A DNA stretch of 26,175 nucleotides from a virus (taxonomy: Duplodnaviria; Caudoviricetes). The DNA lies in IMG/VR virus record IMGVR_UViG_3300025653_005355, positions 1 through 26,175 of that record; one strand, 5' to 3'. Made by a program: the position numbers and the translations under genes. This document shows, one piece after another, positions 3 to 23,065 of this stretch (positions within the stretch are counted from its first letter, which is position 1; each line of letters starts with the position of its first letter). The notes beneath the pieces are model-generated. The model was not told where the DNA came from and searched no databases. It saw only the letters and a program-made list of their open reading frames with translations.

Positions 3-2405
3 CGCCGCGCCCAAGAGATGCTCGGTGAGAGAGTCACATCTGAAGCAACGAGCCGCATCGGCGGTCTTGGTCGACGAATCCGACAACGTGAAGTTCCGCA
101 TAGTGGAGTTCAGGCGGTTGGTTCTCGACTGTTGAACTCTGACCAAGCAGAAAGGCTTTTCCGTAGGGCTGGCCTCGACTCAAACGACATCGACAACATT
201 CGTTTCGTTGGCGAAATGGCGGCTGCGTTCGGAACCTCTGGCCCAGCCGGTGTTGGCCTTGTTCTTGCTCGCCGTGGCAGTCGTGAAGCGATCGAACTTG
301 GCGTGCAAAAAGCCGTCGAGCAGGGGTGGCTTACAGATACTCAAGCGCGTCGCATTATGCGAGCCGCAGACACTGTTGCCCCCGAAGGTTTGCCGGATGA
401 AATTACAGCAGCCATTGGCGATACAGCCAGAGACGTTTGGGACTCTGCCGCCGCCGACAAAGCGCGTGCGCTTGGCGAAGCCGCTGCTCAACGCGTTCGT
501 GAACTAGACATCGTTGACCGAGGAATGGACGTCTTCGACAGCGCAAGAGACAGGATTCTCGGTCGCGGATCCGAACCAGACACCCCCGCTCTTCCTGCGT
601 CTTCAGGGACATGGGATCCATTCGGCGGCATGGCGTCACGACGGGGAAGCATCCGCAGCGAGGTTCCTGCTCTTCGAGGTGAGAACCCAGAACAGTTGAG
701 GCGACTTGGTCTTGACATGTCGCATAACCCGGATTCGATTGACCAGACTTATTATCAAAACATCGTTGATATTGCTGGCGACATTCGCCTTCCTGACCCG
801 TGGGGTGAGGGACAAGGCAAAACAATTCGCGAATCCTTCACTCAAACAAACTATAAGGATGAAACGTATTTTTCTTCCTACTCGGGCGACCTCGATTACG
901 CGATCGAAGCGGTGCAAGCCTCCGATTTGAGCGATGAAGATAAAGCCCGAGTTGTCGAAGACCTGCAAACCGTTAAAGGGCTGTCTCAGTTGGCAGGCGT
1001 TGGAATGTCAACATCAAAGCCGCCGGGTCGTAGCCGAGATCCTTTTGGTGACGATGGGCCAGAAGCAGAATTTGTGCCGCCGACCGCTGAACAACTCGAC
1101 CAGCAGATCGACGAAATTTTCGATTCGATGCCAGAATCTTTCTTCGAAAATTTTGGCTCGGTACTCGCTGATTTCCAGAAGCGAAAAGAAACACGTGAGC
1201 GCAGAGAAAAAACTCAACGTGAGGTTGAGTCTGAGTTGACGCGGTCAGAAGCCCGTATTGGATACTTCCGGCTCCTTGACGAAAACGATGTCCTTGACCG
1301 CACAGCACCAGTCGGTGAAGCAACAGTTGCGCGACCACACAATCCAGACCACGAACCAAGTGTGCCTGACCCAGACACGTTGCGATCTATCGACGATCTT
1401 GTACAACTCAGCAAGGATGGCATGGTTGTCGCTGACAGCCTGCTCAAGCCAGAACATCGTGAAGAACTCCGCAAACTGCTACTTGAGAACCCGCGAGTTA
1501 AAGCAGCATTGGACTTAATCCGTGAACGCGTCGCTTCCGGTGGGTACCTAGACGACGACGACATAGAAGTAGAAACTCGGTCGGGGGCATACTACGCAGG
1601 ACGAGAACTGGTAGATGCCTTGGTACATGCGCGAGGCATGGATGCAGCAGCAACTCTTCTGACAGACGACGAAATTGACGTCTTGAGATACGTCGATGGG
1701 TGGACCCCTGTCTCGCGTGGCGGCAACCCGGAAATGGCGCGCCGTCATATTGAGGGAGATGGTTACCCGATTGGCGAAGGCGTTGATGGCGCCGGTGTTT
1801 ACTTCGCTGTACAGGGAGGAACCGAACGAATGGGCATCAATGAACACTTTGATGCTGCCGTATACGCTGGAGAAAATGGTGCTGTGATGCAAGGCGTCGT
1901 TTCGCCCTCTGCACGTTTTGCCGGTCCGAATGCCATAGCGACTCAGCGCGAGGCATATCGCCTAGAGGTGCAAGCGGGCATACCCCAGAACTACAGTGAA
2001 GGCGCTAACCCTTTACTTGACTTGCGTCGCGAACTGGTCGCCTCTGGCGATACCGAAATGGTCGAAGCATTGGACTTGATGGTCGGCACAGCGTCATCAG
2101 ACAACAATGGGGAGTTCCCGAACGGCTCTGCGGTAATTGCGCTTCTTCAAGGTTACGATGGGCTCGCCAGTTATGGCTCCAACTCCGCAGACAACCGCGT
2201 CATTTTGTACAACCGTTCAGCGGTTTTGCTGTCTAGCAACTTGTTAAGTGCCGATCAATATAATGAATTGAAGCCGTGGGAAAAACTGGAGGTGCGAGCC
2301 AAAGCGCTCGCCGAAGCACACAATCTGCCTGTCGGTCTTGAGGGAGCGGAACGAACAGAGTGGATTCTGCAAGAAACAGAACGCAGGCTGGGAGAACTCG
2401 GATGA
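3..2405 (+). CDS. Large modular protein (5'-truncated) with C-terminal ADP-ribosyltransferase-like domain; probable virion/head cargo protein
   Basis: Frame is open from the window edge (no stop upstream of ATG 18). Linkers GGMASRR (624-644) and GMSTSK (1002-1019). The C-terminal ~1620-2240 has WTPVSRG, GAGVYFA, GYDG and LYNR and aligns by eye with the C-terminus of 8088..13289. Confidence 0.6.
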   Translation, partial: RRAQEMLGERVTSEATSRIGGLGRRIRQREVPHSGVQAVGSRLLNSDQAERLFRRAGLDSNDIDNIRFVGEMAAAFGTSGPAGVGLVLARRGSREAIELGVQKAVEQGWLTDTQARRIMRAADTVAPEGLPDEITAAIGDTARDVWDSAAADKARALGEAAAQRVRELDIVDRGMDVFDSARDRILGRGSEPDTPALPASSGTWDPFGGMASRRGSIRSEVPALRGENPEQLRRLGLDMSHNPDSIDQTYYQNIVDIAGDIRLPDPWGEGQGKTIRESFTQTNYKDETYFSSYSGDLDYAIEAVQASDLSDEDKARVVEDLQTVKGLSQLAGVGMSTSKPPGRSRDPFGDDGPEAEFVPPTAEQLDQQIDEIFDSMPESFFENFGSVLADFQKRKETRERREKTQREVESELTRSEARIGYFRLLDENDVLDRTAPVGEATVARPHNPDHEPSVPDPDTLRSIDDLVQLSKDGMVVADSLLKPEHREELRKLLLENPRVKAALDLIRERVASGGYLDDDDIEVETRSGAYYAGRELVDALVHARGMDAAATLLTDDEIDVLRYVDGWTPVSRGGNPEMARRHIEGDGYPIGEGVDGAGVYFAVQGGTERMGINEHFDAAVYAGENGAVMQGVVSPSARFAGPNAIATQREAYRLEVQAGIPQNYSEGANPLLDLRRELVASGDTEMVEALDLMVGTASSDNNGEFPNGSAVIALLQGYDGLASYGSNSADNRVILYNRSAVLLSSNLLSADQYNELKPWEKLEVRAKALAEAHNLPVGLEGAERTEWILQETERRLGELG

Positions 2406-2605
2406 TTGACGACAGCACCAAATGGGGACGTGACGACGACGTCAAAAAATTTCTTGCGACCGAAAGTATGCAGGTTGTAAAGCGTAAGGACCCTGAATCG
2501 ATTGCGTATTTCGTTACGGCCTTCCAAGAACGCGCAAAACCAGAAGACGTTCTCGAACAGCACCGTGACTGGTATGAGGCTGCCATGAAGGAATATGAAT
2601 CATGA
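2402..2605 (+). CDS. Small hypothetical protein (67 aa, MIDDSTKWG...), candidate partner/immunity protein
   Basis: ATGA overlaps at both ends (2402-2405, 2602-2605) and GGAGAA lies upstream, so 2402 is preferred over the track start at 2360. Confidence 0.7.
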   Translation: MIDDSTKWGRDDDVKKFLATESMQVVKRKDPESIAYFVTAFQERAKPEDVLEQHRDWYEAAMKEYES

Positions 2606-5121
2606 AGGCGGTGATGGTCGGTCGTGTGTCTGGTGGCAACTTGTTCTATGTCATTGACGGGGACACCGATGGCGCAATCGTCACTCCTTCTCGTGATGTC
2701 AAGCCTGTCAGTTTTTTGTCTTTCGTAACCCGCAAGAAAGTGAGCCGGATTACGAATAGTAAGTTCCATAAATTTTTATGGGATGGAGTTGACAAACCCA
2801 ACGACCGGTGGGAAAACATTGTCGTGTACAAGGTGCAACAGGTGCCGGAGCACATGCTCGCTGGCGTCGACGTGCTCTCCAACCTTGAAGCCAAGAAAAA
2901 AGATGCCCGCTACGACGCGATAAACGAAAAAATCGAAATCATCGACACATTTAAAGTTGCGATTGAAACAGGTTTCCACGAAAAAGCACTTGGACCCCGC
3001 ATTCGCCCAGCACGGTTCGATCCCAACGCCGAAGATGGCGATGGTGACGGCATTGTTCAGGACGGAACTACATTTGCGAGACCAGCGACTCCCGGCACTA
3101 AACCGGCACGTCGCGCCCGACGAGTGCAACGAGCAGCCAATGCGATGTCTAGGGACAGCGGCATGGCGGCACGCCGCAGTTATCTCCCGAGGGTTGGTGT
3201 AATTGAGAGATTCAAGTCGCGTGACAAAAAGTTTTACCGTGACCGTTACGCAAAGCAGTCCAAACGAGTTGACGATGCCTTCAACGGTGGAAAGCCGCTA
3301 AAGACGTACGGCGACATCGCTTCTGCATTTACGCGGGCGCATCCGGGTTTCGCCGCAGGAACGTCCATGGCCGACTACGTCGAAATTGGTTTACTCAAAG
3401 AGGACGAACCAATCTCGATGGCGCACAAAGAGCACGCATACGCGTTTCTGCTTGGCGTCTTGATGAATCCAAGTATCAAAGACATCGATGTGGAAATCCT
3501 TAGCCGTGAATCACGTCGACGTTTAGGCAAGGACCCCATCGAAGGCGCCGATGGCGCAGTGGCGTACGGTGCACGCGGAAAAATTGGTCGCGACCGAAAC
3601 AAAGTCAACGGGTACAGATGGCGAACCGTTGCCAAGGACCGAAAGCCGCGTCTTGAAATGATGTATGCCGACCAGACGTCGTACGACCAGATAGAGGATG
3701 TTCGTGTTTTAGGCAACTTTCAGTTGGAAACACACAAAATGTTCATCACGATGCTCGAAGACACCCCCACAGCATTTTCTGACACAAGCGCCCTTTTGCA
3801 GGCATTGCAACAAATCCTTGAAGGGACAGGCACGCAAGAAAATCTCAGTCCGGAAGATACCGACGCGATCAGAAAAGCATGGGAAGAAGCACGGGCAATG
3901 GCAGCGCGCAGTGTCAACCTGCACGAAATGACGCACCTTTCCAACTATGCGCAAGCATACAAAGAAGCAATTAAGGACCGAGGAATTGAATCACTTAGCG
4001 TAGATGAAGCAATTCAGCAGGGGGTTCTCGAACCGATTGCCGACATGGGAGATGATGCAATTCGCCAAGCGGCAATTAGAAGCGACCTCAGGGAGTTGTC
4101 CGTAACCGCGCCAGAAGCGATGTTCCGCTTCGCTGCTGAATATCAAAGGCTTATCCAAAGCACCAATCCACGCGACAAGATACTTCTTCAGCGGCTGGTA
4201 ACTGAAACTCTCAAAGATCCCGATGGTAACGATCTTAAAAAGGGTGAATCTATTGCTAGATGGCTACAGGCTGTCGGCTGGCCCAAGCCAAACGGCACCC
4301 AACATGACGCGGATGACCCTCTGCATGTAGACGATCTCCTGCCCTTCTTCTTCACTCCCGGCGCAGGAGGACGACCAGTCTGGTCCGACAAGGATGATCC
4401 CTACTATAAGCGGTCCGCATGGGGCCGAAACACTGCTGCCAGCAAACTTGACTTGGCTAACGGCGGAAGCATGGGCATGATCAAGTTTCAAGAGGTGTGG
4501 GACCTCGGGTTGCCGGAAACACGAGGACTACCGGCAATTAGCGTTGAAGATACTCACACCCTCACAAAAGCAGTGGCGCAGGTTGCTACGATGTTTCGTC
4601 TAGATCCCGATATTAGTCAATGGGACTTTGATGACTCGATCCCAGTGGTCGGTGGCGCAATTTGGGAGGATAGCCCGGGCATTATGCGGGCAATCATGAG
4701 TAGCAACGCGCAGGAATGGCTGGCTAACGCTCTTACCCAAATTTCTATGGACACTTCGATGAGCGACGCGCAAAAAGAACGCCTGAGAGCATACATAGTC
4801 GAACAAGCAATCATTGCGCCAAAATTGATGGACGATCTTTCCCCTCGGGAGAAGGCCATCGCTGTGCGTATTGCTAAACTTACAGGTGGTGGAGAGTACG
4901 CCTCTTACATGGGGACGTTTACTCATATAGATTCCTTCCAAGGATTATTTTTCAATCAGCGCTACATGGAATTGCTGGCTGAACTCGGCGCCGCAGCACT
5001 ATTTGGCTCAGAAATCAAAGTTCCAGACGGTTCCGGAATGCGCACTCTGAACGACGTTGAGAAAAAAGTGATGAGCAAGTTGTTGAAGTGGCTATGGCCA
5101 GAAGGTGAGTTAACGCTGTGA
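2602..5121 (+). CDS. Large modular protein with DGDxDG tag and zincin-like metallopeptidase domain
   Basis: 839 aa. HEKALGP...RFDPNAEDGDGDGIVQDGTTFARP (2977-3084), SGMAARR linker (3157-3177), HEMTH zinc motif (3922-3936), distal EYASY...ELLAE (~4890-4983). Confidence 0.65.
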   Translation: MKAVMVGRVSGGNLFYVIDGDTDGAIVTPSRDVKPVSFLSFVTRKKVSRITNSKFHKFLWDGVDKPNDRWENIVVYKVQQVPEHMLAGVDVLSNLEAKKKDARYDAINEKIEIIDTFKVAIETGFHEKALGPRIRPARFDPNAEDGDGDGIVQDGTTFARPATPGTKPARRARRVQRAANAMSRDSGMAARRSYLPRVGVIERFKSRDKKFYRDRYAKQSKRVDDAFNGGKPLKTYGDIASAFTRAHPGFAAGTSMADYVEIGLLKEDEPISMAHKEHAYAFLLGVLMNPSIKDIDVEILSRESRRRLGKDPIEGADGAVAYGARGKIGRDRNKVNGYRWRTVAKDRKPRLEMMYADQTSYDQIEDVRVLGNFQLETHKMFITMLEDTPTAFSDTSALLQALQQILEGTGTQENLSPEDTDAIRKAWEEARAMAARSVNLHEMTHLSNYAQAYKEAIKDRGIESLSVDEAIQQGVLEPIADMGDDAIRQAAIRSDLRELSVTAPEAMFRFAAEYQRLIQSTNPRDKILLQRLVTETLKDPDGNDLKKGESIARWLQAVGWPKPNGTQHDADDPLHVDDLLPFFFTPGAGGRPVWSDKDDPYYKRSAWGRNTAASKLDLANGGSMGMIKFQEVWDLGLPETRGLPAISVEDTHTLTKAVAQVATMFRLDPDISQWDFDDSIPVVGGAIWEDSPGIMRAIMSSNAQEWLANALTQISMDTSMSDAQKERLRAYIVEQAIIAPKLMDDLSPREKAIAVRIAKLTGGGEYASYMGTFTHIDSFQGLFFNQRYMELLAELGAAALFGSEIKVPDGSGMRTLNDVEKKVMSKLLKWLWPEGELTL

Positions 5122-5482: not shown

Positions 5483-6130
5483 ATGGATGAAATCGAAGTC
5501 AAGGGACCGCAGGATGTAATTCTAGACCTGCCGCAGGAGCGCATTACCGCGATCACTCGTGGTCGTGGACCCCGTCGCGGCAATTTGGAACGTCTTTTGC
5601 GCTACTGGCGCCCGATTATGAAAAAGCCGGGCGGCTTTCGTCGCTGTCGGATCATCCTTGCCGACCACCCCGAGTTGTACCCCTTGGAGCGGATCTGTGC
5701 GTGGCTGCACCATGAAACCACCGGCTTGTGGCCCAACGAGGGGTGCCATCACCCCGGCATGAAGAACTGTAAAGGCAAACTCAAGAAAAAGATTTGGACC
5801 GACAAGAACTTTGCGCGACGCATGAAAAAGCGTTTCAAAAAAGGAAAGAAGTCCCTTGACGGAGCGTACTGGGAAGATGTCGACGACATGTTTTTCGGCG
5901 ACTTCCAAGAACGCAAAGAACTTGGGTTTGATGACGAACAGAATCCCGTAGTCACTGAAATGGATTACAAACACGCAATGGACGTGCTTTCCGATTTCAT
6001 GGAAATGGAATCTGATTTTGTTGCCTATCTGCGTGATTACGACAACTGGGAACTTGAAGGCGAAGACGATAACGGTTCGCTACGCACTGAAGCGTTTGTG
6101 AAATCCGAGGAAGATTGCGGGTGTGACTGA
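5483..6130 (+). CDS. Head-morphogenesis-region hypothetical protein with L-x-x-Y-W...G-x-F-x-R-C...C-A-x-L-H...T-G-x-W-P domain, basic tract and acidic tail
   Basis: 215 aa. The GNLERLLRYW...PGGFRRC...ICAWLHHETTGLWP pattern resembles a domain I recall from actinophage head-region proteins (unverified). TGATG overlap with the next gene. Confidence 0.55.
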   Translation: MDEIEVKGPQDVILDLPQERITAITRGRGPRRGNLERLLRYWRPIMKKPGGFRRCRIILADHPELYPLERICAWLHHETTGLWPNEGCHHPGMKNCKGKLKKKIWTDKNFARRMKKRFKKGKKSLDGAYWEDVDDMFFGDFQERKELGFDDEQNPVVTEMDYKHAMDVLSDFMEMESDFVAYLRDYDNWELEGEDDNGSLRTEAFVKSEEDCGCD

Positions 6131-8091
6131 TGGTTGAGTCATATGTCTACGAACGCGATTTTGGTTGCGAAGCCTGTCCGCCAATCCTGATCAAGAGGAC
6201 AATCCTCGCTGATCTGTCAACGAAGGTAAACCATGACCACATCCGTGGCATGGGCGCAAAATCCGAAGAAGTCGTTGAGTTCAAAGCGCTTGCGCGGCGT
6301 CTTGGTAGTCTGCGCCAATTCGAAGAGAAGCGTGTCGGTCTTTTTGGTTCAAGAAGCCGACTTGGGCAGGTCGCTCAGTCAATCGGCACTTACGCGGCCC
6401 CCGGAAATATTTCCCCAGCCCGAAGCCCAATCCGTTCCGGTATTGCCCGCGCGTTGACGCCGGGAGGACGTCGAGGCCGTGGGATCCCCGGTCGTGGACG
6501 AACTGCACGTTGCCCAGAGGGATATCAGTACGGTGGTCGGTTTACTGACAACGAGTTCACCACTTGCGGCCAGCAATTGTTTGACATGCCGAGCGATTTG
6601 GGTGAAACCATTTCACAGATTCGCCGTCGTGCCGCAGCAAGGACACCCGCGCCAGAAGGTTCAACAACTGAACCTAGGGCTATCAGTAGTGGTTCGAGTG
6701 GTCGAAGCGTGGTGAACCCTCGTGCTCCGCAGATTCCGCGCGTTGCTCAGAAAACCAATAAGCAGGCCCGCTCGAAGAGTGAAGAGCAAATCGTAAAGGG
6801 CATGAGCCCCAAGGGTGTGGAGGCTGCCCGTCTTGTTCGACGTGATGGATTTATTCTTGAGCCGGTGGTTTCAGCGCAGGTGTTGCGCACTATTCCTGAT
6901 AACCGCGACATGGTCGAAGCAACATATCTCTTGACTGCGCGTAGCAAGAACGACATTGGCGGCCAAGAACTTGGGCTTTTGTCAAACACCGGCATCACCA
7001 AACTCACCTATGTGCTGCCGGGCGGCTCGACGCTGGAACTCGAAAAAGTTAGAAATTTGACGACTGGTGAGCGCCGCAAACTCGGTCGAACCGTCAACAA
7101 GGGCATCAAAACGTCTAACGACTCTGATTCGGCTGCGCGTCTCAAGTTCGTGTCCGACGAGACGGGTGATGGGATTCAGTACCGAGAGAACCTGTCTGGT
7201 GGCAAAACTATTGATCAGATCCTTTCGAGTGGCGGTAAGGCCCCCAAGAAAGCGCCTGCGCCGAAGGAAGAAACTGAGGAAGTTACTGATATCGCTCAGG
7301 CGGCGCGCATCATCCGTGACGGCGGGCCTCTTTCCGCGATCGCTCCGTCAATTTTGCAGGAAGCATTGACGAAGGCGAATATGTTCAAGCGTGACAATGG
7401 TTTGTACGAAACAAATCGTGCTGGCACATACCGCATGCAGAAGTCAAACGGCAAAGGTGACCACATTTCAGCCAGTTTTGCTGCGGAAATGCAGTCCTAC
7501 CTTGGGCTTAACTCCCCCGACATCGCGCCAGTCGGCAAGGGCGACAAGAAGAATTACTTGGTCGAGGTTGCTGATAGCGTAATTGAGGGCGCAACCCTGC
7601 AAAAAGACGTCAAACTGAGCGACATTCCGACAACCGAAATGGCGTCGATGCTTGTTTCTGACATCATTTCGGATATCACCGACCGCAAGAGCAACAGTAT
7701 TGCGGTGCTCAAGAAAGACGACGAAATGCTCGCATTTCCTGATATATCAAAGAGCGAACTGATTAATTTGTCGGAAGTAAGCGTTACGGAACGTACAAAA
7801 GCACGGATCCGTGACTTCCGTTCGGTCTCTGGGAACGGCCTTTACAGCAAGTATTATAGAGAGTTGAAGGAAGATCAACAAAGGCTCATGCAGCAACAGA
7901 TCGCTGAACTGATTGAGCGAGCCCGCGAATTTAACTTCACAAAATTCAGAGATCGTCTTTACAGGGACGGAGAACTGAGCGGCGCCGAAAAAGTCCATCT
8001 GAACATCATCCAAAAGATCGTCGAAAATCGCGTTGACGTGCTTCGACAGAGCCGAGAGCAACTCATGGAAGTCCTCGGAGGTAAAAAGTGA
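6130..8091 (+). CDS. Large modular protein with RCP...GGRFTD...C motif and degenerate HipA/PI3K-like kinase-fold C-terminus
   Basis: 653 aa, coupled at both ends. C-terminal YLGLNSP...SDIISDITDRKSNS...AFPD echoes the HipA-like LGL-x-x-P...D-x-x-x-x-N-x-D-R-H-x-x-N...ID pattern with substitutions. Confidence 0.45.
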   Translation: MVESYVYERDFGCEACPPILIKRTILADLSTKVNHDHIRGMGAKSEEVVEFKALARRLGSLRQFEEKRVGLFGSRSRLGQVAQSIGTYAAPGNISPARSPIRSGIARALTPGGRRGRGIPGRGRTARCPEGYQYGGRFTDNEFTTCGQQLFDMPSDLGETISQIRRRAAARTPAPEGSTTEPRAISSGSSGRSVVNPRAPQIPRVAQKTNKQARSKSEEQIVKGMSPKGVEAARLVRRDGFILEPVVSAQVLRTIPDNRDMVEATYLLTARSKNDIGGQELGLLSNTGITKLTYVLPGGSTLELEKVRNLTTGERRKLGRTVNKGIKTSNDSDSAARLKFVSDETGDGIQYRENLSGGKTIDQILSSGGKAPKKAPAPKEETEEVTDIAQAARIIRDGGPLSAIAPSILQEALTKANMFKRDNGLYETNRAGTYRMQKSNGKGDHISASFAAEMQSYLGLNSPDIAPVGKGDKKNYLVEVADSVIEGATLQKDVKLSDIPTTEMASMLVSDIISDITDRKSNSIAVLKKDDEMLAFPDISKSELINLSEVSVTERTKARIRDFRSVSGNGLYSKYYRELKEDQQRLMQQQIAELIERAREFNFTKFRDRLYRDGELSGAEKVHLNIIQKIVENRVDVLRQSREQLMEVLGGKK

Positions 8092-11000
8092 AGCAGTACG
8101 CACTGGTAAAAGACACGATCACCGGAGATACATACGGTGTCGTAATCCGCGAAAACGGTTCAGAAACCTGCCTCGCTGTAAAAACCGACGCTGAAGCATG
8201 GGCAGACGGCTTCAACGACATGCACACCAAGTCGCTCGATGACGACCTGCCATACGGTGTCCGCATCGGAGATTTCCGTGGCATGACAGAAGCGGAAGAA
8301 GTCATCGTTAATGAAATGGCTTTAACCAAGCAGGACCTCCGCCTCCCCAACCGTGACGTCCTCACTTTGATCGACTCTCAACGCACAGACATTGCTACCG
8401 ACCCGATTTCGGTAAAGGACGCGCCGATTGCGTTCTTTGGCGAGTCGGCGGAAAAAGCCGTCGACTACAAGGTGCGCGCTTTCATTTCAGACATGGCTCG
8501 CGGTTCCGTGCTCGCAAAAGCCCGCAACTCAAAATTGGGTATCGAGCGCAAGGGACTGGTTTTCAAGTCACGCAACAACGACCAGTATCTCCGTGAAGAC
8601 CTCGCCAACATGGCCATGGGATATGGTCCGCTGCGTCGAGCAGCCAAAGATGTTTTCCACGCCAAGCAGGACATCCTTGACGATCACGACGGATACCGAC
8701 TAGACGACCAATTTGATCTTCACGTGAAAGCACTTGGGCCCAAACTTGGCGGTGGCCTGCGTGCAGCCCCACGAGGAATGGCATTTGTCGACATCACTGG
8801 TCGTGTTGACGGCGACCGAGACGGAATCGTTTTCGAGGGTGTCACTGGCATGGAGCGCCCAATCATCCCTCGGTTCATCGTCCCTCAGGGCATGGCGCGC
8901 CGCGTGTCGCGGGCCCTTGAAGGTGACTCGATGGAGATTGAGAAGCGTCGCCGTGCCGGCGAGCGAGACCTCGGTATTGATCAGGCGACTCTCAACGATC
9001 GTCTGGGCAATGACGCCCGATTCTTGCAAGCGGCTCCGGGGACGCAGGGGCAGCAGTCTCGTCGCGCTACCCGCCGAACCGGACGGATTGGCGGAGGCGC
9101 TGAGTTACTGGGACCGAAAAGGAATCGACCCGGAAACGAAGATTATCCGCGCATGGATCCAGAGAGAGTGGCTCGTCTGCGCCTTGAGCGTTTCGTTCAA
9201 GAAACCAGCCCGTCTGGCCGCGCACGCCAAAACCGCATCATCAACACTCCGGGTGCTGATGGTGGCCCATCACGTCGCGCTGTTCGCGAACGTTCTGGCC
9301 GAGTTATCCCAGAACCACCGGCACGCGATAGAGGCGGAATGCGTTCACAGCGTCAATCTCAAAGGACTGACTGGACGGGCGATGGAAAGCCTTTCTATTT
9401 GCGAAATGATCCGCAGAGCGAGTTGGTCGCAAAGCGTCGCGATGAGTTTGGGCGCCTCGAAGAAATCTACAGGAACACCGAGACTGGAAAATTCTTTGGA
9501 CGGCAAACGGGATTTTCTGATTACGACACTGAAGGGATTTCCATCCGTGATGGCGACAAACGGCAGTTTGACACAGCGGAAGAAGTTCAACGAGTCGCAG
9601 AAGCCGACAGTCTTTCGCAGTTCAATGGGAGTAATGGACTGCGTTCACAGCGTGCCACTGGAGACGACATTCGGGCAACGCTCTCTCGTATTGATAAAGC
9701 CGAAGGCGGCTATGCCTCTCTTGGCGATGACTTGTTTGACAACATCAGGTTTGCTGCCGACTACCTCGACGGCAACACGGACGCAAACTCAGACGACGCT
9801 TTTGATTTCCTTTTGGCTGCCCTTACCGGTGTCAGAGACAACAAAGACATCAAGCCAAAGGATCGTAGAGAGTTAGAAAAGCAGATCAACGACGCTCTTA
9901 GACGGCACTCTATGCTGCAGCCAAAGATGGGTGGAATGCGTTCACGCCGATCAGAAAACGAAGATGGATCGGTTCCCGAAGGCGATTTCGTAGATATCGA
10001 CTTGACGATGGAAGAAGTCGGCTACTTGTCCGACATTGTCGACAGCATCCGTGACGACATCGCAGCGGCTAACGACTCTGAAGCCGACGAACTGTGGCAA
10101 GAGTTTTCCGACGCAATCGAAGATGCTGCTGCCGGAGTTGACGTTGTTCGTCTCGACCGCGCTGACGCGGAACGACTTCGCGAAATGCTCGAAGATCTTT
10201 ACACCGCAGAAGTCGAACAAGGCAACCCATCCCCAGAAGAGGGCGACGTTCTAGACCTTCTAGGACGCGCAATCGACTCACCCGATGGCGTGTGGGTTTC
10301 CCCTTCAATCGAAGACAATGGTGGCACCCGCCTCTCGACCGGAGGCATGGGTAGTAGAAGGCGTGTCCGGGCAGGTGAATCCTTCGGACCAGAAGCCCGC
10401 TACAACGTTGAGGAAATCGACGGAGACCGCGCGCTCGTCTACGACAACATGAACCGCACGTCGGAGTGGCGCGACCTTGACACAATTTCCCCCGATGACA
10501 CACCATCCCGATTCGAAGGTGGCGGTGGTTTGGCTTCACGCCGAATGACCCCAGAACAGATGGCGGAAAAACGGAACGAGATGGAGCGTGACCTGCGCTC
10601 CCGTGCAGCACGCGAACTGGGCGTCAGCGATGAAGAGTACGCCGAGATGGAGAAATACATCGACGATCTCCCGTTCGATGACGACTCCGCTGAATGGCCG
10701 GGCGAGATCGAAGACGCCGGCGAATCGCGTGGAGGGCCAACCGGACAGCGCACGTCATGGGGCGCCCGCGTCAGCGAAAGCGACGAAGTCAGAGAAGGCA
10801 TTTTCCCTGACGGGCCAATGGAGGGATCGCGCTGGACATTCAACCGCAACGAGTTTTATTCGGAAGATACTTTCGACGATCCGGGCGAGTCTCTTGAAGG
10901 AACTCAGACGCTGACCGTGGACACGCCTAACGGCACCCGCATTACTTACAGCAGCGGCCTTGAAGACGCACCGTCAATTGAACGAGTGCAGAAAATCAGC

Positions 11001-13289
11001 GGAAATGGCGGTCTTCGGGCCAGCCGTGGAGGCGGAGATACTGCGAACTCGCTCGCCCCTAGCCAGCCTTCAAGCAACCCGAAAACTTATGGAACATACA
11101 TCCCGAAATCGATGAAGGATGTCCGTAAGGATTTGCAGATGCTGGCCGCGAACGGCTGGGTTTGGCAAGGTCCGGTAAATGGCAACATCAGGTTTGCTCC
11201 GCCTGACCGTTTCTATGAATGGGCGAAACGCCAACCTGACTCATGGAAGCAGCAATTCGGTGAGCGCCTTATGCGTGGCGGGATTGTTCCGCGCGAATTC
11301 GGGCTTCATCCGAAGCAGGGCAACAACCAGTCAGTCATTCGTGAACTCAAGAAGCGCGTCGAAAAGGTTTATGGCGAAGGCGCTTGGGCTGACATGCAGA
11401 AGAACGCCAAGAATGATGGCATCGGCAAGGTTGGCAACGTGCCATCAGTTGTGTCATCTGGTGGCGGCATGCAAAGTGCACGCGGTGGCCGTTCACGAAT
11501 TCGTGGCGCACAGGACGAAATCACCGGCGCATCCGGACTTGGAGGCGGCATGCGTGCTGGCCGTCGCCGCTTCGGCTCCGGTCGTAACGGCATCAAGAAA
11601 GTTGATGACCGTGACGGCAAGATCATGGAGCAGTTGACGCCGGAACAACGCGAAAAAATGATCGAAGCGATCAAGGAGCGCGAAGGCCAGTTGGCTTGGG
11701 CGATGACACAAAACGGCCTGTTCCGCCCCATCCGCAACACGATGGAAGACGATGGGCGCTACGAAGGCATGTCTCTCGATGAAAGAAAGCGTGTCCCTAT
11801 CGACACAGACTTGATTCCTCGCATGCAGCAGCGGCTTGACGACGCGCTTCGTGATGGCGACATCACCGAGGAGGCCCATGCGGCTTTCCAGAAACAGTTG
11901 AACGACATCAAGACGCTCAACAACATGCGTGAATCGAACAAGTTTGATTTCATCGAGCACCTCCACGAACCTTCTCGCAAGGAAATCGTGAAGCGGGCAC
12001 GATCCAAAGATAAGAGCATCCCAACTCTTGCCGCTTTGGACGGTGCCGGCGAGTCAACGTTCTTCAACGAAGAGGCGTTTGGTTCTGCTCAGGGTGCGGC
12101 CGAGACCGTGTCTGAGCGAGCAGCCCGTCGCCGTGGCAAGCGTCGCCGTCCTCTTTTCGACCGTCTCCTTGACCCAGACCCCAGCAGGGCGCAGCGTAGA
12201 GCAAACCGTCGTGCCCGCCGTCAGGGACGTGGTGGACGTCGAGCCACCGATGTGGACCTCGCTGAAACAATTCGTTTGCGTCGCCGGCTTGCCCGTCAGA
12301 TGCGTCGTTTGCGTCGACGTCTGCGTGGTGAAAGGAACGAGAAGTCGATTCGCGAGGCTCTTGAAGCGAAGCGTTCAGCACACCCGTTGAAGCGCGACAA
12401 ACTCGGCCGTCCAGTCGTTGACGCAGAATTCCTCAAGCACATGTCCAGCCTGAAGCGCCTCAAGGACGAACGCGATCGTGGTGAGCGGAACAGCGAAACG
12501 AAGGACGATTTCCTTCGTGACCTGTGGGAAAACGGCAACATGAACGCACTCCCCGAAATCCTTTCAGAAGACGAGGTGCAAGCACTCCTCGATGCAGGCT
12601 GGAAGCCACTTCACCGTGGTGTTGGGCCAGACGGAACAGCCAACCAGTACTCCGATGCTTACCGTGAAGACCGCGACTCTCGCTTCATTTCAGACCCGCA
12701 TCGACGCGCCTACGGCACCGGTGAATATTGGGCTCCTGAAGGAAGCGGACACTGGGGTGGATACGGCAAAGGCATGGTCGGGTTCGTCGACCCCAACGGA
12801 CGAAAGATCAGCGGCCGAGACATCGAAAGCATCAAAGACAAGCACAACACTCTCCGCAAGGAACTGTCTGCTCTGATGGCCGAATTGGGAGATGGCGCGC
12901 TGAAAGGCGAAGATCCCGCAAACGCCGTCACTCAGATTCGTACCCGCATCAAAGAAGCGGAAGAGCGTCTTGGAGTCGCTGGTCTTTTGGAAAGCGAAAT
13001 GGGTCAGATTTATAGCCAGTGGCTAGACATGTATGCCGGAATGAAGCCGGATGATGCTGGCCGATCCGACGCATGGGATTCGTTCGAGTACCTCCAAGAC
13101 CTCACCCGTCTCGACTCTGGCTATTACGCCGCATTCCTTGGCTACGACTATGTCGAGCACAACGGCGTAACCCTCGTACACAACCGTGGAACGGTTGCTG
13201 TGGCTGATACCGCTAGCGCAATCAGCGGCGGAGAAGCCAGCCAGATGTTGAGCAAGGCCAAAGAGGGCGATGGGGTTAAGTTCCCATAA
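8088..13289 (+). CDS. Giant (1733 aa) polyvalent/polyprotein-like protein with DGDxDG tag, 8 linker repeats, Arg-rich tract and C-terminal ADP-ribosyltransferase-like domain
   Basis: GTG start overlapping the previous stop. HVKALGP...DGDRDGIVFEG...ERP (8721-8861); linkers between 9333 and 11565; WKPLHRG, YGTGEYWA, GYDY, HNRG at 12600-13190. Confidence 0.7.
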   Translation: MKQYALVKDTITGDTYGVVIRENGSETCLAVKTDAEAWADGFNDMHTKSLDDDLPYGVRIGDFRGMTEAEEVIVNEMALTKQDLRLPNRDVLTLIDSQRTDIATDPISVKDAPIAFFGESAEKAVDYKVRAFISDMARGSVLAKARNSKLGIERKGLVFKSRNNDQYLREDLANMAMGYGPLRRAAKDVFHAKQDILDDHDGYRLDDQFDLHVKALGPKLGGGLRAAPRGMAFVDITGRVDGDRDGIVFEGVTGMERPIIPRFIVPQGMARRVSRALEGDSMEIEKRRRAGERDLGIDQATLNDRLGNDARFLQAAPGTQGQQSRRATRRTGRIGGGAELLGPKRNRPGNEDYPRMDPERVARLRLERFVQETSPSGRARQNRIINTPGADGGPSRRAVRERSGRVIPEPPARDRGGMRSQRQSQRTDWTGDGKPFYLRNDPQSELVAKRRDEFGRLEEIYRNTETGKFFGRQTGFSDYDTEGISIRDGDKRQFDTAEEVQRVAEADSLSQFNGSNGLRSQRATGDDIRATLSRIDKAEGGYASLGDDLFDNIRFAADYLDGNTDANSDDAFDFLLAALTGVRDNKDIKPKDRRELEKQINDALRRHSMLQPKMGGMRSRRSENEDGSVPEGDFVDIDLTMEEVGYLSDIVDSIRDDIAAANDSEADELWQEFSDAIEDAAAGVDVVRLDRADAERLREMLEDLYTAEVEQGNPSPEEGDVLDLLGRAIDSPDGVWVSPSIEDNGGTRLSTGGMGSRRRVRAGESFGPEARYNVEEIDGDRALVYDNMNRTSEWRDLDTISPDDTPSRFEGGGGLASRRMTPEQMAEKRNEMERDLRSRAARELGVSDEEYAEMEKYIDDLPFDDDSAEWPGEIEDAGESRGGPTGQRTSWGARVSESDEVREGIFPDGPMEGSRWTFNRNEFYSEDTFDDPGESLEGTQTLTVDTPNGTRITYSSGLEDAPSIERVQKISGNGGLRASRGGGDTANSLAPSQPSSNPKTYGTYIPKSMKDVRKDLQMLAANGWVWQGPVNGNIRFAPPDRFYEWAKRQPDSWKQQFGERLMRGGIVPREFGLHPKQGNNQSVIRELKKRVEKVYGEGAWADMQKNAKNDGIGKVGNVPSVVSSGGGMQSARGGRSRIRGAQDEITGASGLGGGMRAGRRRFGSGRNGIKKVDDRDGKIMEQLTPEQREKMIEAIKEREGQLAWAMTQNGLFRPIRNTMEDDGRYEGMSLDERKRVPIDTDLIPRMQQRLDDALRDGDITEEAHAAFQKQLNDIKTLNNMRESNKFDFIEHLHEPSRKEIVKRARSKDKSIPTLAALDGAGESTFFNEEAFGSAQGAAETVSERAARRRGKRRRPLFDRLLDPDPSRAQRRANRRARRQGRGGRRATDVDLAETIRLRRRLARQMRRLRRRLRGERNEKSIREALEAKRSAHPLKRDKLGRPVVDAEFLKHMSSLKRLKDERDRGERNSETKDDFLRDLWENGNMNALPEILSEDEVQALLDAGWKPLHRGVGPDGTANQYSDAYREDRDSRFISDPHRRAYGTGEYWAPEGSGHWGGYGKGMVGFVDPNGRKISGRDIESIKDKHNTLRKELSALMAELGDGALKGEDPANAVTQIRTRIKEAEERLGVAGLLESEMGQIYSQWLDMYAGMKPDDAGRSDAWDSFEYLQDLTRLDSGYYAAFLGYDYVEHNGVTLVHNRGTVAVADTASAISGGEASQMLSKAKEGDGVKFP

Positions 13290-13637: not shown

Positions 13638-15257
13638 ATGTCAGGGGAGGCCAAGGACAAGGCTTCCGCTTTGCGGAGAGCACAAGAACTTGGCTGTTCT
13701 GGCGCGCACAAGCACCCCGACGGCGGCTGGATGGCGTGCGAAACCCACGAAGAATACGAACGCCTTGAGGCTGAGGAAGAACGGGAAGAAAAATCGGTTC
13801 TTTCCCGAATGCATGATTTCCAAAGCGTCCGTGAACGCAAAGGCCGTCGCAAAAAGAAGAAAAACAAGAAGACGTGGGAAAAACTTGGCGAACGCGGAGT
13901 TGCGTCGATTGACACCATCCCCGGCGGAGGCCTTGTTTCTGGATCCGTAGGCAAAGCGGCTTCAGCCATCCCACACGAAGGCGACGAAGATGTTTTCACC
14001 GACATCAGATCCGCACGCAGGCGCGCCCGCCAATTGGGATGCATTGGTGTCGCTCGGCGTCGTTCACGAAACGGAACAACTGTCTGGACGCCGTGCAGCA
14101 ACATCACCGACTACGCACGCCGGACAGGGACTACTGCTCTGGGACGTCGTTATCAGGCGAGGTTGGCTCGTCAAGAAGCGCGCCGTCTCGTTGAAGAAGA
14201 GTTCCTGAGGACGCGCAAGCGTTACAAACGCAAGGTTTCCCTGCACGAAGAACTCAATGGCAAATCGTTGGGTCGGCGGGCTCAACGCTTCGATCCGAAT
14301 GCTGTTGATGGTGACAACGACGGCATGGTTCAGGACGGAAGCGCTTTCCAGCGTCCTGTGACCCCAAAGGCTCCAAGTGCTTTCGATCTGAAAAAGCACA
14401 CGAAATTGTGGAACTCGGTGCTTCAAGACGATCCGGGTTACATGCGTGAAGCACCCGCGTCTGTCCTTTCAGGGATCACCCCAGAAAACCGGGCTCGCTT
14501 CGCCGAAATTCAGGACGGAATGCGGCACTCGCGTATCGGTGCTGGTGGACGAACCGCTGCAAAGAAAATCTTGGACAAAGTCGAACCGCAGCACCGCAAC
14601 AAGCCACCCGGATCACGAAAAGTGCATTTTGTCGGCGGAACAACAGGTGCTGGAAAAACCACGTTGATGGAAGACGGAACGCTGAACGTTCCCGATTCGA
14701 ATGCGGCTGCCGTTATTGATCCCGACGAGATCAAGAAAGGTCTAGAGGGCTACGACAACGGTCGAGGCGCCAGTTTGGTGCATGAAGCATCACGTCAAGC
14801 AACTGACAAAACCATGGATTCCGCACGGGATTTAGGCACTGACATCGTTGTGACTGGCACCGGTAAGCGTACTGAGCACTTGCAGTGGGCACGCAATAAC
14901 GGATACAGCACTGCTGGCCATTTTGTGTACATCCCAGATGACGTTGCCGACAAACGTCTTGCCGAACGCAACGCTAGAAACAGGGAACAAGGCGGACCTG
15001 TTCTTCCCGGCCATTTCGGTAGCCAAATCGCAGGAGAAATGCGTGCAATCGTTCCGCGCCAGATCACCAGCGGGCTATATGACGAATTTTACTTGTGGAA
15101 CAACAACGTTCAACCACCCTCACTGATTGCAAAACGCACCCCTGATGGCGAGTTCGAAATCAATGACGATGAGGCATTTTCTGCCTTCTTTGGAGCCCGT
15201 GGGGCCCAACAAGTGCTGGGATATTGGCAATCTCAGTCCAGAACACCCGAAAATTAA
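13638..15257 (+). CDS. Zeta-toxin-family P-loop kinase fused to two DUF3721-like GCxG..W-x-x-C repeats and a DGDxDG tag
   Basis: Walker A GGTTGAGKTT (~14634-14663), IDPDEIK, HEAS, VVTGTG, RLAERN. Repeats LGCSGAHKH..WMACETH (13668-13757) and LGCIGV...WTPCSN (13992-14114). KSLG..RFDPNAVDGDNDGMVQDGSAFQRP (14262-14357). Confidence 0.75.
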   Translation: MSGEAKDKASALRRAQELGCSGAHKHPDGGWMACETHEEYERLEAEEEREEKSVLSRMHDFQSVRERKGRRKKKKNKKTWEKLGERGVASIDTIPGGGLVSGSVGKAASAIPHEGDEDVFTDIRSARRRARQLGCIGVARRRSRNGTTVWTPCSNITDYARRTGTTALGRRYQARLARQEARRLVEEEFLRTRKRYKRKVSLHEELNGKSLGRRAQRFDPNAVDGDNDGMVQDGSAFQRPVTPKAPSAFDLKKHTKLWNSVLQDDPGYMREAPASVLSGITPENRARFAEIQDGMRHSRIGAGGRTAAKKILDKVEPQHRNKPPGSRKVHFVGGTTGAGKTTLMEDGTLNVPDSNAAAVIDPDEIKKGLEGYDNGRGASLVHEASRQATDKTMDSARDLGTDIVVTGTGKRTEHLQWARNNGYSTAGHFVYIPDDVADKRLAERNARNREQGGPVLPGHFGSQIAGEMRAIVPRQITSGLYDEFYLWNNNVQPPSLIAKRTPDGEFEINDDEAFSAFFGARGAQQVLGYWQSQSRTPEN

Positions 15258-15390: not shown

Positions 15391-16725
15391 ATGGCAGATA
15401 CCAGCCGCATCAAGGAGTTGCAGTCCGCGCTCCAAGAGAAGACCGCCGAAAACAAGGCGATCGCCGATTCGTTCAAGGTCGAGGAAGGCGTGGTCGTCGT
15501 TGACGCCGCGCAGAAGTCCGCTTTCGACCAGAACATGAAGGACATCAAGGAAATCAAGAGCCTCATCGCTGGCCTTGAGAGCCTCAACGAGGTCGACCAG
15601 TGGGGTTCCTCGCAGGCCGACGAGAGCGTTGCCGCCAAGGCTGCCGCTTTCGAGTCGGTTCGCGAAGAGGTCGCTCACAAGTTCGGCACCGTGGGCGAGG
15701 CCTTCCTTGAGTCGGAAGAGTTCAAGAGCCTTCAGGGCGGCAAGAACGGTGCGAACATGCACTCGCCGTTCCAGTACAAGGGTGCTCTCACCACCGCTAA
15801 CGGTTACAACGTCAAGGACATCTACTCGGCCATGCCTTCCGGCACCCCGGGTCAGTTTGGTTCGATCCAGCGCGATCCGATCGTGATCCCGCCGCAGCGC
15901 ACCAAGCGCGTCCGTGACCTGTTCCCGGTTCGCACCACCTCGGCTGCGATCATCGAGTACTTCCGCATGACCGGCTTCACCAACAACGCGGCGACCGTCG
16001 CGGAGCGTGGCACTGAGGGTGGCAACCCCGTCTTCGGCGCCAAGCCGCAGTCGACGATGACCTTCGAGGGCGTGCAGGCCCCCGTTCGGACCATCGCGCA
16101 CTGGGAGGCTGCTCACCGCAACGTGCTCGCCGACGAGCCGCAGTTGCGTTCGATCATCGACAACGAGTTGATGTACGGCCTCCGTCTTCAGGAGGACGCT
16201 CAGATCCTCGACGGTGACGGCACTGGTGAGAACCTGACCGGCGTCCTTCAGACCACGGGCATCCAGACCTATGACTGGAGCGACGGCGCTCTGACCCCGG
16301 TTCCGGACACCAAGGCTGACGCGATTCGTCGCGCCGCTACCCTCGCGTTCCTCGCCTACTACGAGCCGACCGGTGTCGTTCTTCACCCGAACGACTGGGA
16401 GGACATCGAGTTGACGAAGGACAGCAACGGCCAGTACCTCGTCGCCGTGTCGGTCGCCCTTGGTGGCGAGCCTCGCGTGTGGCGCATGCCGGTCGTCGAG
16501 ACCCCGGCCATCAGCGAGGGCACCGCTCTCGTCGGTGCGTTCGGTACCGGCGCCCAGTTGTACGACCGTGAGCAGGCGAACATCCGGATCTCCGAGCAGC
16601 ACTCGGACTTCTTCGTTCGCAACGCGATCGTCGTGCTCGCTGAGCAGCGTCTGGCCCTCGCGGTCAAGCGTCCGGAGGCCTTCGTGAAGATTGACTTCAC
16701 CAACGGCGGCCCGGTCGCTCCCTGA
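15391..16725 (+). CDS. Major capsid protein, HK97 fold, with N-terminal coiled-coil delta/scaffold domain
   Basis: 444 aa. RVRDLF, VAE, KPQS..FE...APVRTIAHW, EDAQILDGDG, LHPNDW, F.RN..V.LAEQRLALAV.RPEAF are typical HK97-family motifs. Strong C/G third-position bias. Confidence 0.95.
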   Translation: MADTSRIKELQSALQEKTAENKAIADSFKVEEGVVVVDAAQKSAFDQNMKDIKEIKSLIAGLESLNEVDQWGSSQADESVAAKAAAFESVREEVAHKFGTVGEAFLESEEFKSLQGGKNGANMHSPFQYKGALTTANGYNVKDIYSAMPSGTPGQFGSIQRDPIVIPPQRTKRVRDLFPVRTTSAAIIEYFRMTGFTNNAATVAERGTEGGNPVFGAKPQSTMTFEGVQAPVRTIAHWEAAHRNVLADEPQLRSIIDNELMYGLRLQEDAQILDGDGTGENLTGVLQTTGIQTYDWSDGALTPVPDTKADAIRRAATLAFLAYYEPTGVVLHPNDWEDIELTKDSNGQYLVAVSVALGGEPRVWRMPVVETPAISEGTALVGAFGTGAQLYDREQANIRISEQHSDFFVRNAIVVLAEQRLALAVKRPEAFVKIDFTNGGPVAP

Positions 16726-20651: not shown

Positions 20652-20948
20652 ATGAGCACCAATAAGAAAAAGACGCCGGCCAAGAAGACGCCAGCCAAGA
20701 AGACCCCGGCAAAGGCCACAGCCGCGAAAAAGGCGCCTGCTAAGAAGTCACCCGCGAAGAAGGCGCCCGCCAAAAAGAACCCGCCAAAGCAAAAGCCAAC
20801 CGGGCCTTACGCCGAGGCACCCAAGCCCAAGACCGCCACAGAGCCAGCACCAGCACCAGCACCAGCACCAGCCGTCGAAATTACCGAAGAAATCATCTTG
20901 GAGAAGCCGTCATGGATCGCTCGCCTCGTGACGAAGTTCAAGAAGTGA
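20652..20948 (+). CDS. Histone H1-like Lys/Ala/Pro-rich protein with amphipathic C-terminal helix
   Basis: Repeats of KK[TAS]PA, a PAPAPAPA tract, and the tail PSWIARLVTKFKK. AGGAAG upstream. Confidence 0.75.
   Translation: MSTNKKKTPAKKTPAKKTPAKATAAKKAPAKKSPAKKAPAKKNPPKQKPTGPYAEAPKPKTATEPAPAPAPAPAVEITEEIILEKPSWIARLVTKFKK
20844..20872 (+). repeat. (CCAGCA)n hexamer tandem repeat encoding Pro-Ala
   Basis: ccagcaccagcaccagcaccagcaccagc, almost 5 units, in frame. Confidence 0.9.
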
Positions 20949-21066: not shown

Positions 21067-21747
21067 ATGTTTCTGCGGGTGCAGGACGACTTCATCCCAA
21101 GCGACCTGCTGGCAGCAGTAGACGCTGACCCCACGTTTTTCCCTGACGACATGTCCGGGCACGACAACATCGGCGAATACCTAAACGAGTTCCACGATAC
21201 GGAATGCGACTGCTACGCGCCGTACATGTTTTGGGACGGATGGTGGCGCTCGCCCGCAGACACGAATCGCAAAAAAGTTATCGAAGCGATTTGGTCTACC
21301 CCCGGCATCCTGCCGTATCCGATCGAAGACATCGTCGGTTTCGAATACTGGACACGCACGTTCGGTGTCGGCCAGTTCCTCGCTCCCCACTGCGACGAGG
21401 ACACGTTCCTGTATGCGAGCGACAAGATTTTCCATGGACCAAAAATTGGTTGCGTCTGGTACGGAACAAGCGAAGCGACCGGCGGTTTTTTGGAACTTCA
21501 CAACAGCGTCGTCCCCGAAGGCTCAGAGCAGTTGGAACGCGACGTCATCGATCAACACCTGTCGACGATTGACGAACGGGAGCGAATCAAGTACCGTCCG
21601 AACCGCCTCGTCGTTTTTGACGCCGGTCACCGGCTTCACGAAACAACAAGAACTTTGAGCGGCAAAAGGCAGGTGATGGTCATCAACGTGTGGCACAAGG
21701 ACTGCCCGCCTTCCGCTCTCCAAACCGGAGATTTCTTTACCGAATGA
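21067..21747 (+). CDS. 2OG-Fe(II) oxygenase
   Basis: FEYW, HCD (HxD), GGFLE, PNRLVVFD, LHE, RQVMVIN. Confidence 0.85.
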   Translation: MFLRVQDDFIPSDLLAAVDADPTFFPDDMSGHDNIGEYLNEFHDTECDCYAPYMFWDGWWRSPADTNRKKVIEAIWSTPGILPYPIEDIVGFEYWTRTFGVGQFLAPHCDEDTFLYASDKIFHGPKIGCVWYGTSEATGGFLELHNSVVPEGSEQLERDVIDQHLSTIDERERIKYRPNRLVVFDAGHRLHETTRTLSGKRQVMVINVWHKDCPPSALQTGDFFTE

Positions 21748-22391
21748 TTGACCTAGAACGCGTTTCGCTGATCGACCTCGGGATCTGGACTGGGAAAATT
21801 GATGACGTTGACCCGCTCCAGATCGCATCCGATATAAAAAACTACGCACAGACAATTGAGCAGGCATGCCCGGAGTACGGGATTATTTCCCGTGGCTTCG
21901 TTCAGTTCGAAGATCTCGTCATGCCAATCACCCCAGAAGTGGTCAAACTGCAGGAGGCCGTTCATGACCGGCTCAAACATTTGACCGGACGCGACTACAT
22001 GCTTCACGATACGTGGGCAGTTGACCTCGAATACAACCAGAGCGTCATCGCCCACTCCCACCACTCAAATCTTCACCTTCACCCACACGAATTCTTCAGT
22101 GTTACTTACTACCCGCAAGTACCAGAAGGGTCAGCGGAATTGGTGTTCAATGTTGATTACTGCGCGACAATGAGTAGCACTGTCAGCGTCAAACCAGAAG
22201 TTGGCACCGTAGTCATTTTCAACTCGTTCATCCAGCACATGACATCGCGACATAAAAGCCAAGATTCTCGGCTTGTAGTCAGTATGAACTGGGGTCCGGT
22301 AGAGCCAACACTCAGTCCGAATGCCGACTGGTCGGTATACTGGGAACGACCAATCGTTGATCAGCCAAAGAAACCTGATGAAAAGCAGTAA
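21744..22391 (+). CDS. 2OG-Fe(II) oxygenase, HxH type
   Basis: W, HSH, SVTYY, P..G..VIFNS...H, RLVVSMN. Start placed at the ATGA overlap at 21744. Confidence 0.8.
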   Translation: MIDLERVSLIDLGIWTGKIDDVDPLQIASDIKNYAQTIEQACPEYGIISRGFVQFEDLVMPITPEVVKLQEAVHDRLKHLTGRDYMLHDTWAVDLEYNQSVIAHSHHSNLHLHPHEFFSVTYYPQVPEGSAELVFNVDYCATMSSTVSVKPEVGTVVIFNSFIQHMTSRHKSQDSRLVVSMNWGPVEPTLSPNADWSVYWERPIVDQPKKPDEKQ

Positions 22392-23064: not shown

Positions 23065-23065
23065 C

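Follow-up and report, generated by a model that had tools for sequence, protein, structure and literature searches.

A repeated module-junction peptide with phage-private dialects in the head-block proteins of large myoviruses, and a candidate zincin that may read it

The window analyzed here, a 26-kb stretch of phage DNA, carries an HK97-type capsid gene alongside genes for WhiB, a B12-type ribonucleotide reductase, and a primase-helicase (Table 1). Its relatives are records of 125–156 kb (~140-kb) that encode a tail sheath and a tape measure, placing the phage in a large myovirus family. The presence of WhiB, together with nearest cultured capsids that belong to Brevibacterium and Gordonia phages (47–51% identity), leads us to infer an actinobacterial host. 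Gene order in the relatives runs from the portal and the S78 prohead protease, often with a giant extension, through conserved g0, g1, g2, g5, g6, and g8 to the capsid gene, a region referred to below as the head block. One record (G011) is identical to the window sequence across g6 and reaches further upstream. Comparisons drew on 35 records, of which 31 could be used: G016 and G024 were dropped because of an unusable head block, and in G013 and G040 the g1 region is missing. Counts over this set (17 main-clade and 14 other records) score as motif-less one record, G031, that was later found to bear a second dialect of the peptide described here.

The g6 product gave nothing above cut-off against Pfam and PHROG, whether searched entire or split by module, and its possible C-terminal ADP-ribosyltransferase-like domain is a lead only (ART-PolyVal, 0.88, on 17% of a cluster). 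The C-terminal domains of g6 (12405–13286) and g1 (1500–2402) have a G-x-G-x-Y plus GYD pattern in common, for which ART-PolyVal is a weak lead. The part of g1 upstream of the window contains a candidate protease, designated ZN1, with HExxH at residue 526, as well as five further motif-like sites. In g5, the position of the catalytic Asp is occupied by D, N, K, S, or V across orthologues, and the protein is likely a pseudokinase because this residue is not conserved. A small Cys module (RCP-G...FTD...C) recurs in g5 (6505–6580), in g1 (L127, residues ~195–215), and in head proteins of motif-less relatives. The 215-aa g4 (5483–6130) forms a fusion with the prohead protease in G008, G009, and G010. 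A module of the form RFDPxAxDGDxDGxVQDGT (DxDxDG; 8808–8825, 3034–3051, and 14307–14324) comes after a K↓ALG or K↓SLG site in several head-block proteins. It is present in 15/15 main-clade versus 1/14 other records and is possibly a capsid-interior or Ca-binding anchor.

Table 1. Features of the head block in the window (arrows within sequences mark the proposed cleavage point)
Feature	Position	Strand	Remarks
g1	3..2405	+	C-terminal 800 aa of a 2421-aa protein; N-terminal part upstream of window
Junction motif GGMASRR in g1	624..644	+	Motifs in 2/2 aligned orthologues
g2	2602..5121	+	839-aa; K↓ALG, DxDxDG module, motif at 3157, then zincin-type module (HEMTH 3922–3936)
Junction motif SGMAARR in g2	3157..3177	+	Canonical in the 3 closest among 8 orthologues listed; partial or absent in the others
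g5	6130..8091	+	653-aa conserved head-block protein; C-terminal HipA/CotH kinase-like fold (7327–8088); no junction motif
g6	8088..13289	+	1733-aa head-block polyprotein; N-terminal pro-region, DxDxDG module, motif-delimited modules, C-terminal possible ADP-ribosyltransferase-like domain (lead only)
K48↓SL, putative prohead-protease-type site	8229..8240	+	Second motif class; sequence pattern
K214↓ALG, putative prohead-protease-type site	8727..8738	+	Sequence pattern
Junction motif GGLRAAP	8751..8771	+	Ninth g6 copy, absent from the preliminary description; GLRSAP in orthologues
DxDxDG module in g6	8808..8825	+	Common to several head-block proteins
Junction motif GGMRSQR	9333..9353	+	Pattern match; predicted coil
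Junction motif NGLRSQR	9633..9653	+	Next module (517–615) absent in L004, further downstream in L012
Junction motif GGMRSRR	9930..9950	+	Pattern match; orthologue comparison; predicted coil
Junction motif GGMGSRR	10341..10361	+	61-aa segment after motif absent in L004
Junction motif GGLASRR	10524..10544	+	Pattern match; predicted coil
Junction motif GGLRASR	11007..11027	+	Pattern match; orthologue comparison; predicted coil
Junction motif GGMQSAR	11463..11483	+	First of conserved doublet
Junction motif GGMRAGR	11544..11564	+	Second of doublet; conserved C-terminal region starts here
g8	13638..15257	+	539-aa; DUF3721, DxDxDG module, degenerate motif at 14514, zeta-toxin-like P-loop domain
Degenerate junction motif DGMRHSR in g8	14514..14534	+	G[MLF]RS in 5/5 orthologues
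Major capsid protein, HK97-type	15391..16725	+	K↓S and K↓D sites; no junction motif

A preliminary description of the window had drawn attention to eight linkers of the form G[ML]x[SA]xR in g6. All eight heptapeptides are present, with Gly at residues 417, 517, 616, 753, 814, 975, 1127, and 1154, and the segments between them (100, 99, 137, 61, 161, 152, and 27 aa; net charge -28 to +11) differ in composition as described. Shuffled g6 sequences contain a mean of 0.28 and a maximum of 4 matches, and 0/5000 reach 8, a figure that is optimistic because the pattern was derived from the very eight g6 copies. Independent support comes from the recurrence of the motif in orthologues and its near-absence outside the head block, the pattern occurring once in 3,958 aa of the other window genes and the profile matching once in 38,963 aa (G001) and once in 33,905 aa (G002) outside the head block. 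Among the additional sites proposed in other genes, those at 624, 3157, and 14514 have orthologue support, whereas GMSTSK at 1002 is kept in 0/2 orthologues and is probably a chance match.

Orthologue comparison locates these peptides at the edges of segments that come and go. The protein in L004, with an N-terminus 77% identical to g6, lacks exactly segments 517–615 and 753–813; L012 has a homologue of 517–615 at a later position between two motifs, and in L013 the 344–416 segment is relocated and fenced by motifs. Across 13 orthologue pairs, 15/20 insert edges fall at most 10 aa from a motif versus 1.9 expected, and 6/10 inserts have both edges near one, the count covering only the 10 inserts of at least 40 aa with well-aligned flanks and omitting unclean inserts. 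A 3021-aa orthologue of g6 holds 12 motif copies. An AlphaFold2 model of g6 residues 400–1171 (6-row alignment; pTM 0.28) puts 8/8 motifs in predicted coil, in segments with pLDDT<50, values that may stem partly from the shallow alignment. Such segments account for 293/772 residues of the model, in which five modules are folded and the 61-aa and 27-aa segments unfolded. A Foldseek search of this multi-domain, low-confidence model against the PDB returned no match at E≤0.001, a result that says nothing about the folds. That the junction motif marks the borders of exchangeable modules in head-block proteins is thus strongly supported, and, as in polyproteins, a repeated consensus recurs at inter-domain joints that are predicted to be flexible.

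De novo word counts reveal that each phage uses a private dialect of the peptide at homologous joints. GMRSxR is the form in G001, G002, G011, and G014, GMRSR in G005 (37 GMRS copies), GL[AR]SST in G004 (19 copies), PLGSR in G006 (17 LGSR copies), and STRS in G015 (35 copies), with GM[SR]S, GFASR, and LRSSG/LSSG as further dialects. At a single homologous joint GMRS, GLRS, GFRS, STRS, TLRS, and GLAS, and GAMS in G041, stand in register. Ser occupies its position in 99% of 285 seed-defined copies, partly by construction. An unrelated second dialect, SGxM[ST]T, occurs outside the main clade in G041 (L311:11018–18880 and L320), a record adjoining G031; its five copies (0/2000 shuffles reach 2) stand at joints homologous to GLASST and GMRS joints. 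G031 has four sites of this type, and the 13 remaining motif-less records contain one [VI]SGxM[ST] in total. In motif-less relatives G008, G009, G010, G022, and G025, shorter head proteins with Pro/Ala/Arg- or PAKK-rich stretches are found instead. Of seven motif matches outside the head block of G006, four lie in one 2693-aa cargo-like protein (L112:2525–10603; G006 102525–110606). This protein, a relocated cargo polyprotein, contains a DxDxDG module, three HExxH, and four PLGS sites.

The same dialects extend to the tape measure. In 10/11 dialect-bearing records, the best match to the phage's own dialect lies within the central low-complexity insert of this protein, as compared with 42/110 for foreign profiles and 14/99 for dialect profiles on nine tape measures scored motif-less. 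The pairing between own dialect and tape measure exceeds 200,000/200,000 permutations, in which kin are not independent. The tape measure of G041 has two own-dialect (SGxMST) sites; own-profile searches of those of G001 and G031 gave no clear one. The tail is built apart from the prohead, and a site in the tape measure accordingly favors an enzyme that acts while the tail matures, or else at or following ejection.

These observations bear on the proposal in the preliminary description that the linkers are protease sites in true polyproteins. Its module-border component is the part that is strongly supported and cleavage is the best, though tentative, reading; of the enzymes it named, discussed below, neither fits best. 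As candidate sites, the motifs are probably cut by some protease. ZN1, the candidate enzyme favored here, lies directly after the small Cys module in the N-terminal part of g1 and combines HExxHxxQ with a distal Glu pair. In alignment A1, which leaves out the 1108-aa g2 orthologue of G013, the H, E, and H are invariant and the two Glu are conserved at 90%. A search iterated from the phage's own sequence recovers ZN1 in 17/17 main-clade and 0/14 other records. The metal motif is kept in 91/94 distant homologues (90 HExxH and one HExxxH), and the parts downstream of such homologues contain 242 generic linker words versus 94 expected, with 20/86 significant alone. Filtering 98 further loci by length and redundancy left 48, five of which repeat earlier records; 47/48 have ZN1, the exception being L311 (G041), and among these 47 the top two words include a linker word in 44 and none in three.

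A zincin fold is tentatively predicted for ZN1. Its model (pLDDT 81) matches zincins weakly, best the catalytic domain of anthrax lethal factor, at a middling Z of 7.2 (rmsd 4.9, 179 aligned), with other zincins next. Foldseek found no match to the ZN1 model in the PDB at E≤0.001 and, among viral structures, a single uncharacterized phage protein; no Pfam model matched the sequence, nor did any of 50,697 deposited phage records.

One alternative is that the motif stays uncut and serves as a docking or modification tag, read by a chaperone of packaging or ejection or by an enzyme that modifies Ser, on every ejected module including the tape measure. The near-invariance of Ser alone would suit such a tag, as would the Gly/small-x-x-Ser spacing that persists in every dialect while the hydrophobic position shifts, the location of the tape measure outside the prohead, and the adjoining kinase-fold gene g5. 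Against this, g5 has no conserved catalytic Asp, for which reason it was rejected as a Ser kinase writing the mark, and it is present also in motif-less relatives. Comparing G002 with 7 records, at tblastn sensitivity only, turned up no further enzyme gene specific to the clade. The placement of the motif strictly at both module ends, rather than on surfaces, is what a cut site requires. The tag is considered unlikely but far from negligible.

A separate class of sites, K↓[SAG]L, conforms to the HK97 prohead-protease rule of Lys-Ser (K↓S; Lys at P1, then a small residue). Motif-bearing, motif-less, and cultured phages all have such sites in the N-terminal parts of their head proteins, as well as around the protease and within the delta region of the capsid protein. 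The S78 prohead protease, one of the enzymes proposed in the preliminary description, could in principle, as the head matures, also cut a second class of site, the junction motif (G-M-R↓S). It is encoded in every record having the region, it frequently forms one chain with a polyprotein rich in motifs (19 copies in G005), and both site classes are hydrophobic-basic-small in the commonest dialect. However, position +2 of the 285 junction copies is Arg in 62% and Lys in 1%, although evident S78 sites need Lys. Its domain hardly changes between dialects (mean 74% identity over 15 dialect-bearing records) or in motif-less phages and is flanked by the same K↓ sites in motif-less and cultured relatives, and prohead-protease distance does not follow motif distance (partial r -0.11), whereas ZN1 has diverged to 22% mean identity yet keeps HExxHxxQ, a contrast that favors ZN1 as the enzyme. 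The tape-measure site, moreover, lies outside the prohead. Cleavage by S78 is improbable on this evidence even if T4-type prohead proteases of giant phages cut ejection proteins, as PMC10052503 describes, and the separate Lys class, the constancy of S78, and the rarity of Lys at the junction make the motif look like the target of another reader.

That reader might also be a different protease, such as a g2-type or ArdC-linked zincin, an unrecognized phage protease, or a host protease with host-specific preference. The head block does encode several further zincins, and the title of a reference in the T5 paper, as far as that entry goes, points to a host role in tail-protein cleavage. Only some motif-bearing records have the g2-type and MPTase-PolyVal zincins, however, and the dialects track phage kinship. 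The g2 zincin (2602–5121), put forward earlier as a possible enzyme, is itself lacking or represented by an N-terminal piece only in motif-bearing G004, G006, G018, G023, G020, G027, and G028, and the chance that any such protease is responsible appears small.

Least probable is a motif that nothing reads at the protein level, whether a mere crossover scar in the DNA that duplication has spread or a start site for internal translation: despite some codon homogenization in G005, where motif Arg is CGT in 34/43 copies versus 38% background, there are 14 distinct 12-mers in 15 copies in the window's phage and 30 in 35 in G015, with Ser encoded by both TCN and AGY blocks, and despite the frequent Met at +1, Leu, Phe, and Thr substitute for it and Shine-Dalgarno-like words precede 6/120 motif Met codons versus 82/1,429 others. 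Synonymous variation thus largely refutes a pure DNA repeat as sole cause, and internal starts were rejected for want of Shine-Dalgarno enrichment. Selection acts on the junction peptide at the protein level, its place is at the borders of modules, and it varies in concert across the head-block proteins and tape measure of each phage. The module-junction code is real and functional; cleavage is likely, and assignment of the enzyme is tentative.

For the favored assignment, in which the motifs are candidate ZN1 cleavage sites that release virion cargo, the probability appears about evenly balanced on the sequence comparisons available. The two records outside the main clade, G041 and G031, each pair a second dialect with HExxH at the same place in g1 and so argue for it. 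Several observations weaken it. ZN1 and the motif co-occur through one change on the 31-record tree (at most two counting G031/G041), and the DxDxDG module tracks the same clade. ZN1 distance does not co-diverge with motif distance beyond kinship (partial Mantel r 0.10; 1342/5000 permutations). Furthermore, G009 has HExxH in its g1 orthologue yet no motif, and the G001 and G031 tape measures and the three loci without a linker word among their top two words are additional exceptions. In the SGxMST dialect the hydrophobic residue has shifted from +1 to +2, and STRS has Thr in its stead, a poor fit to one fixed S1' rule. Zincin-bearing proteins can also be packaged or transferred uncut, as with phage N4 virion RNA polymerase, ArdC, and TraC1 in the available text of PMC5512222.

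In the mechanism envisaged for ZN1, head-block proteins would be packaged via their N-terminal regions, as their gene position suggests, and the HK97-type prohead protease would trim them at K↓[SAG]L. ZN1 would then cut the junction peptide, in the matured head or on or after ejection, at either Gly↓Met/Leu or x↓Ser, converting head-block proteins and tape measure to single modules and freeing nucleases, NTPases, Nudix and anti-restriction proteins, and many small domains of no known function. The repeated motif codons would provide micro-homology through which modules could recombine in frame. A more elaborate, speculative picture, which is conceivable but falls short of being probable, is a two-tier code in which loading and trimming of cargo fall to the capsid protease, acting at a Lys site that stays fixed, an injected, fast-evolving zincin of phage-private specificity unpacks dozens of effector modules and the tape measure post-ejection, and the peptide doubles as the recombination joint. 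Modules would then move between lineages and be refitted with the local dialect, as suggested by one exonuclease module that is bordered in three phages by GLASST, GMRS, and SGAMST. If so, ZN1 homologues would constitute a natural library of orthogonal sequence-specific proteases.

The closest known parallels are the polyvalent proteins (Iyer et al. 2017, PMC5512222), described in the available text as giant multidomain chains within virion gene blocks. The proteins analyzed here likewise lie between the portal/protease and major capsid genes and unite many disparate domains, as seen in the module mosaic of g6 orthologues and in relatives, whose proteins reach 4,109 aa and include MPTase-PolyVal, ArdC-N, zeta toxin, Nudix, RNase T, and KTSC domains. 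The hallmark domains PF18818 and PF08401 occur in relatives (G005, G006, and G012), g6 itself being without a Pfam match. Zincin self-processing has been proposed for polyvalent proteins since 2017, with no cut site named and no cleavage-site motif given in the available text of PMC5512222; here, by contrast, a repeated phage-private peptide fences modules and recurs across several genes as well as in the tape measure, and ZN1 matches no Pfam model.

Processing in T4-like and giant phages offers a second comparison. In SPN3US (gp245; PMC10052503), one phage protease acts on several internal proteins at a short motif, an arrangement proposed here from sequence. There, the prohead protease acts, mainly in propeptide removal, a role that the K↓[SAG]L class appears to fill here; the junction motif differs in being a second layer, with up to 19 copies per chain, that varies among close relatives. 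The fused virion RNA polymerase polyprotein of crAss-like phages (bioRxiv 10.1101/2020.03.07.982082) is similarly presumed to be cut into parts, with a zincin (gp65) as candidate, but the available text describes three fixed components in a podovirus-type host group and gives no site motif, and no RNA polymerase is found here. The tape measures T5 pb2 and lambda gpH show that such proteins can be cut during morphogenesis (bioRxiv 10.1101/2022.09.20.507954), although the cut described in the available text is single and C-terminal, whereas the present site lies in the central low-complexity insert and copies the head-cargo dialect. Cultured Brevibacterium phage Cantare and Gordonia phages Chidiebere and ScarletRaider are also myoviruses with a related portal, S78 protease, and capsid (47–51% identical) and the same K↓[SA] sites, but they lack the junction motif (19 proteins checked) and a ZN1 match. 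No account of the motif was found in the literature searched, a search reaching few subscription journals. The present analysis separates two classes of site, argues for ZN1 rather than the prohead protease, and adds a second lineage whose dialect is shifted.

With its predicted sites, candidate enzyme, and naturally occurring dialect pairs, the motif family makes the zincin self-processing idea testable with purified domains even though the phages are uncultured. Enzyme–dialect pairs could also give orthogonal proteases. In addition, the motif parses unannotated proteins of 1,500–4,100 aa into small candidate effectors, mostly without a family. Elsewhere in the window, positions 20652–20948 encode a Histone H1-like AKK/PAK-repeat protein (match below cut-off), and 21067–23809 contains four 2OG-Fe(II) oxygenase genes in tandem.
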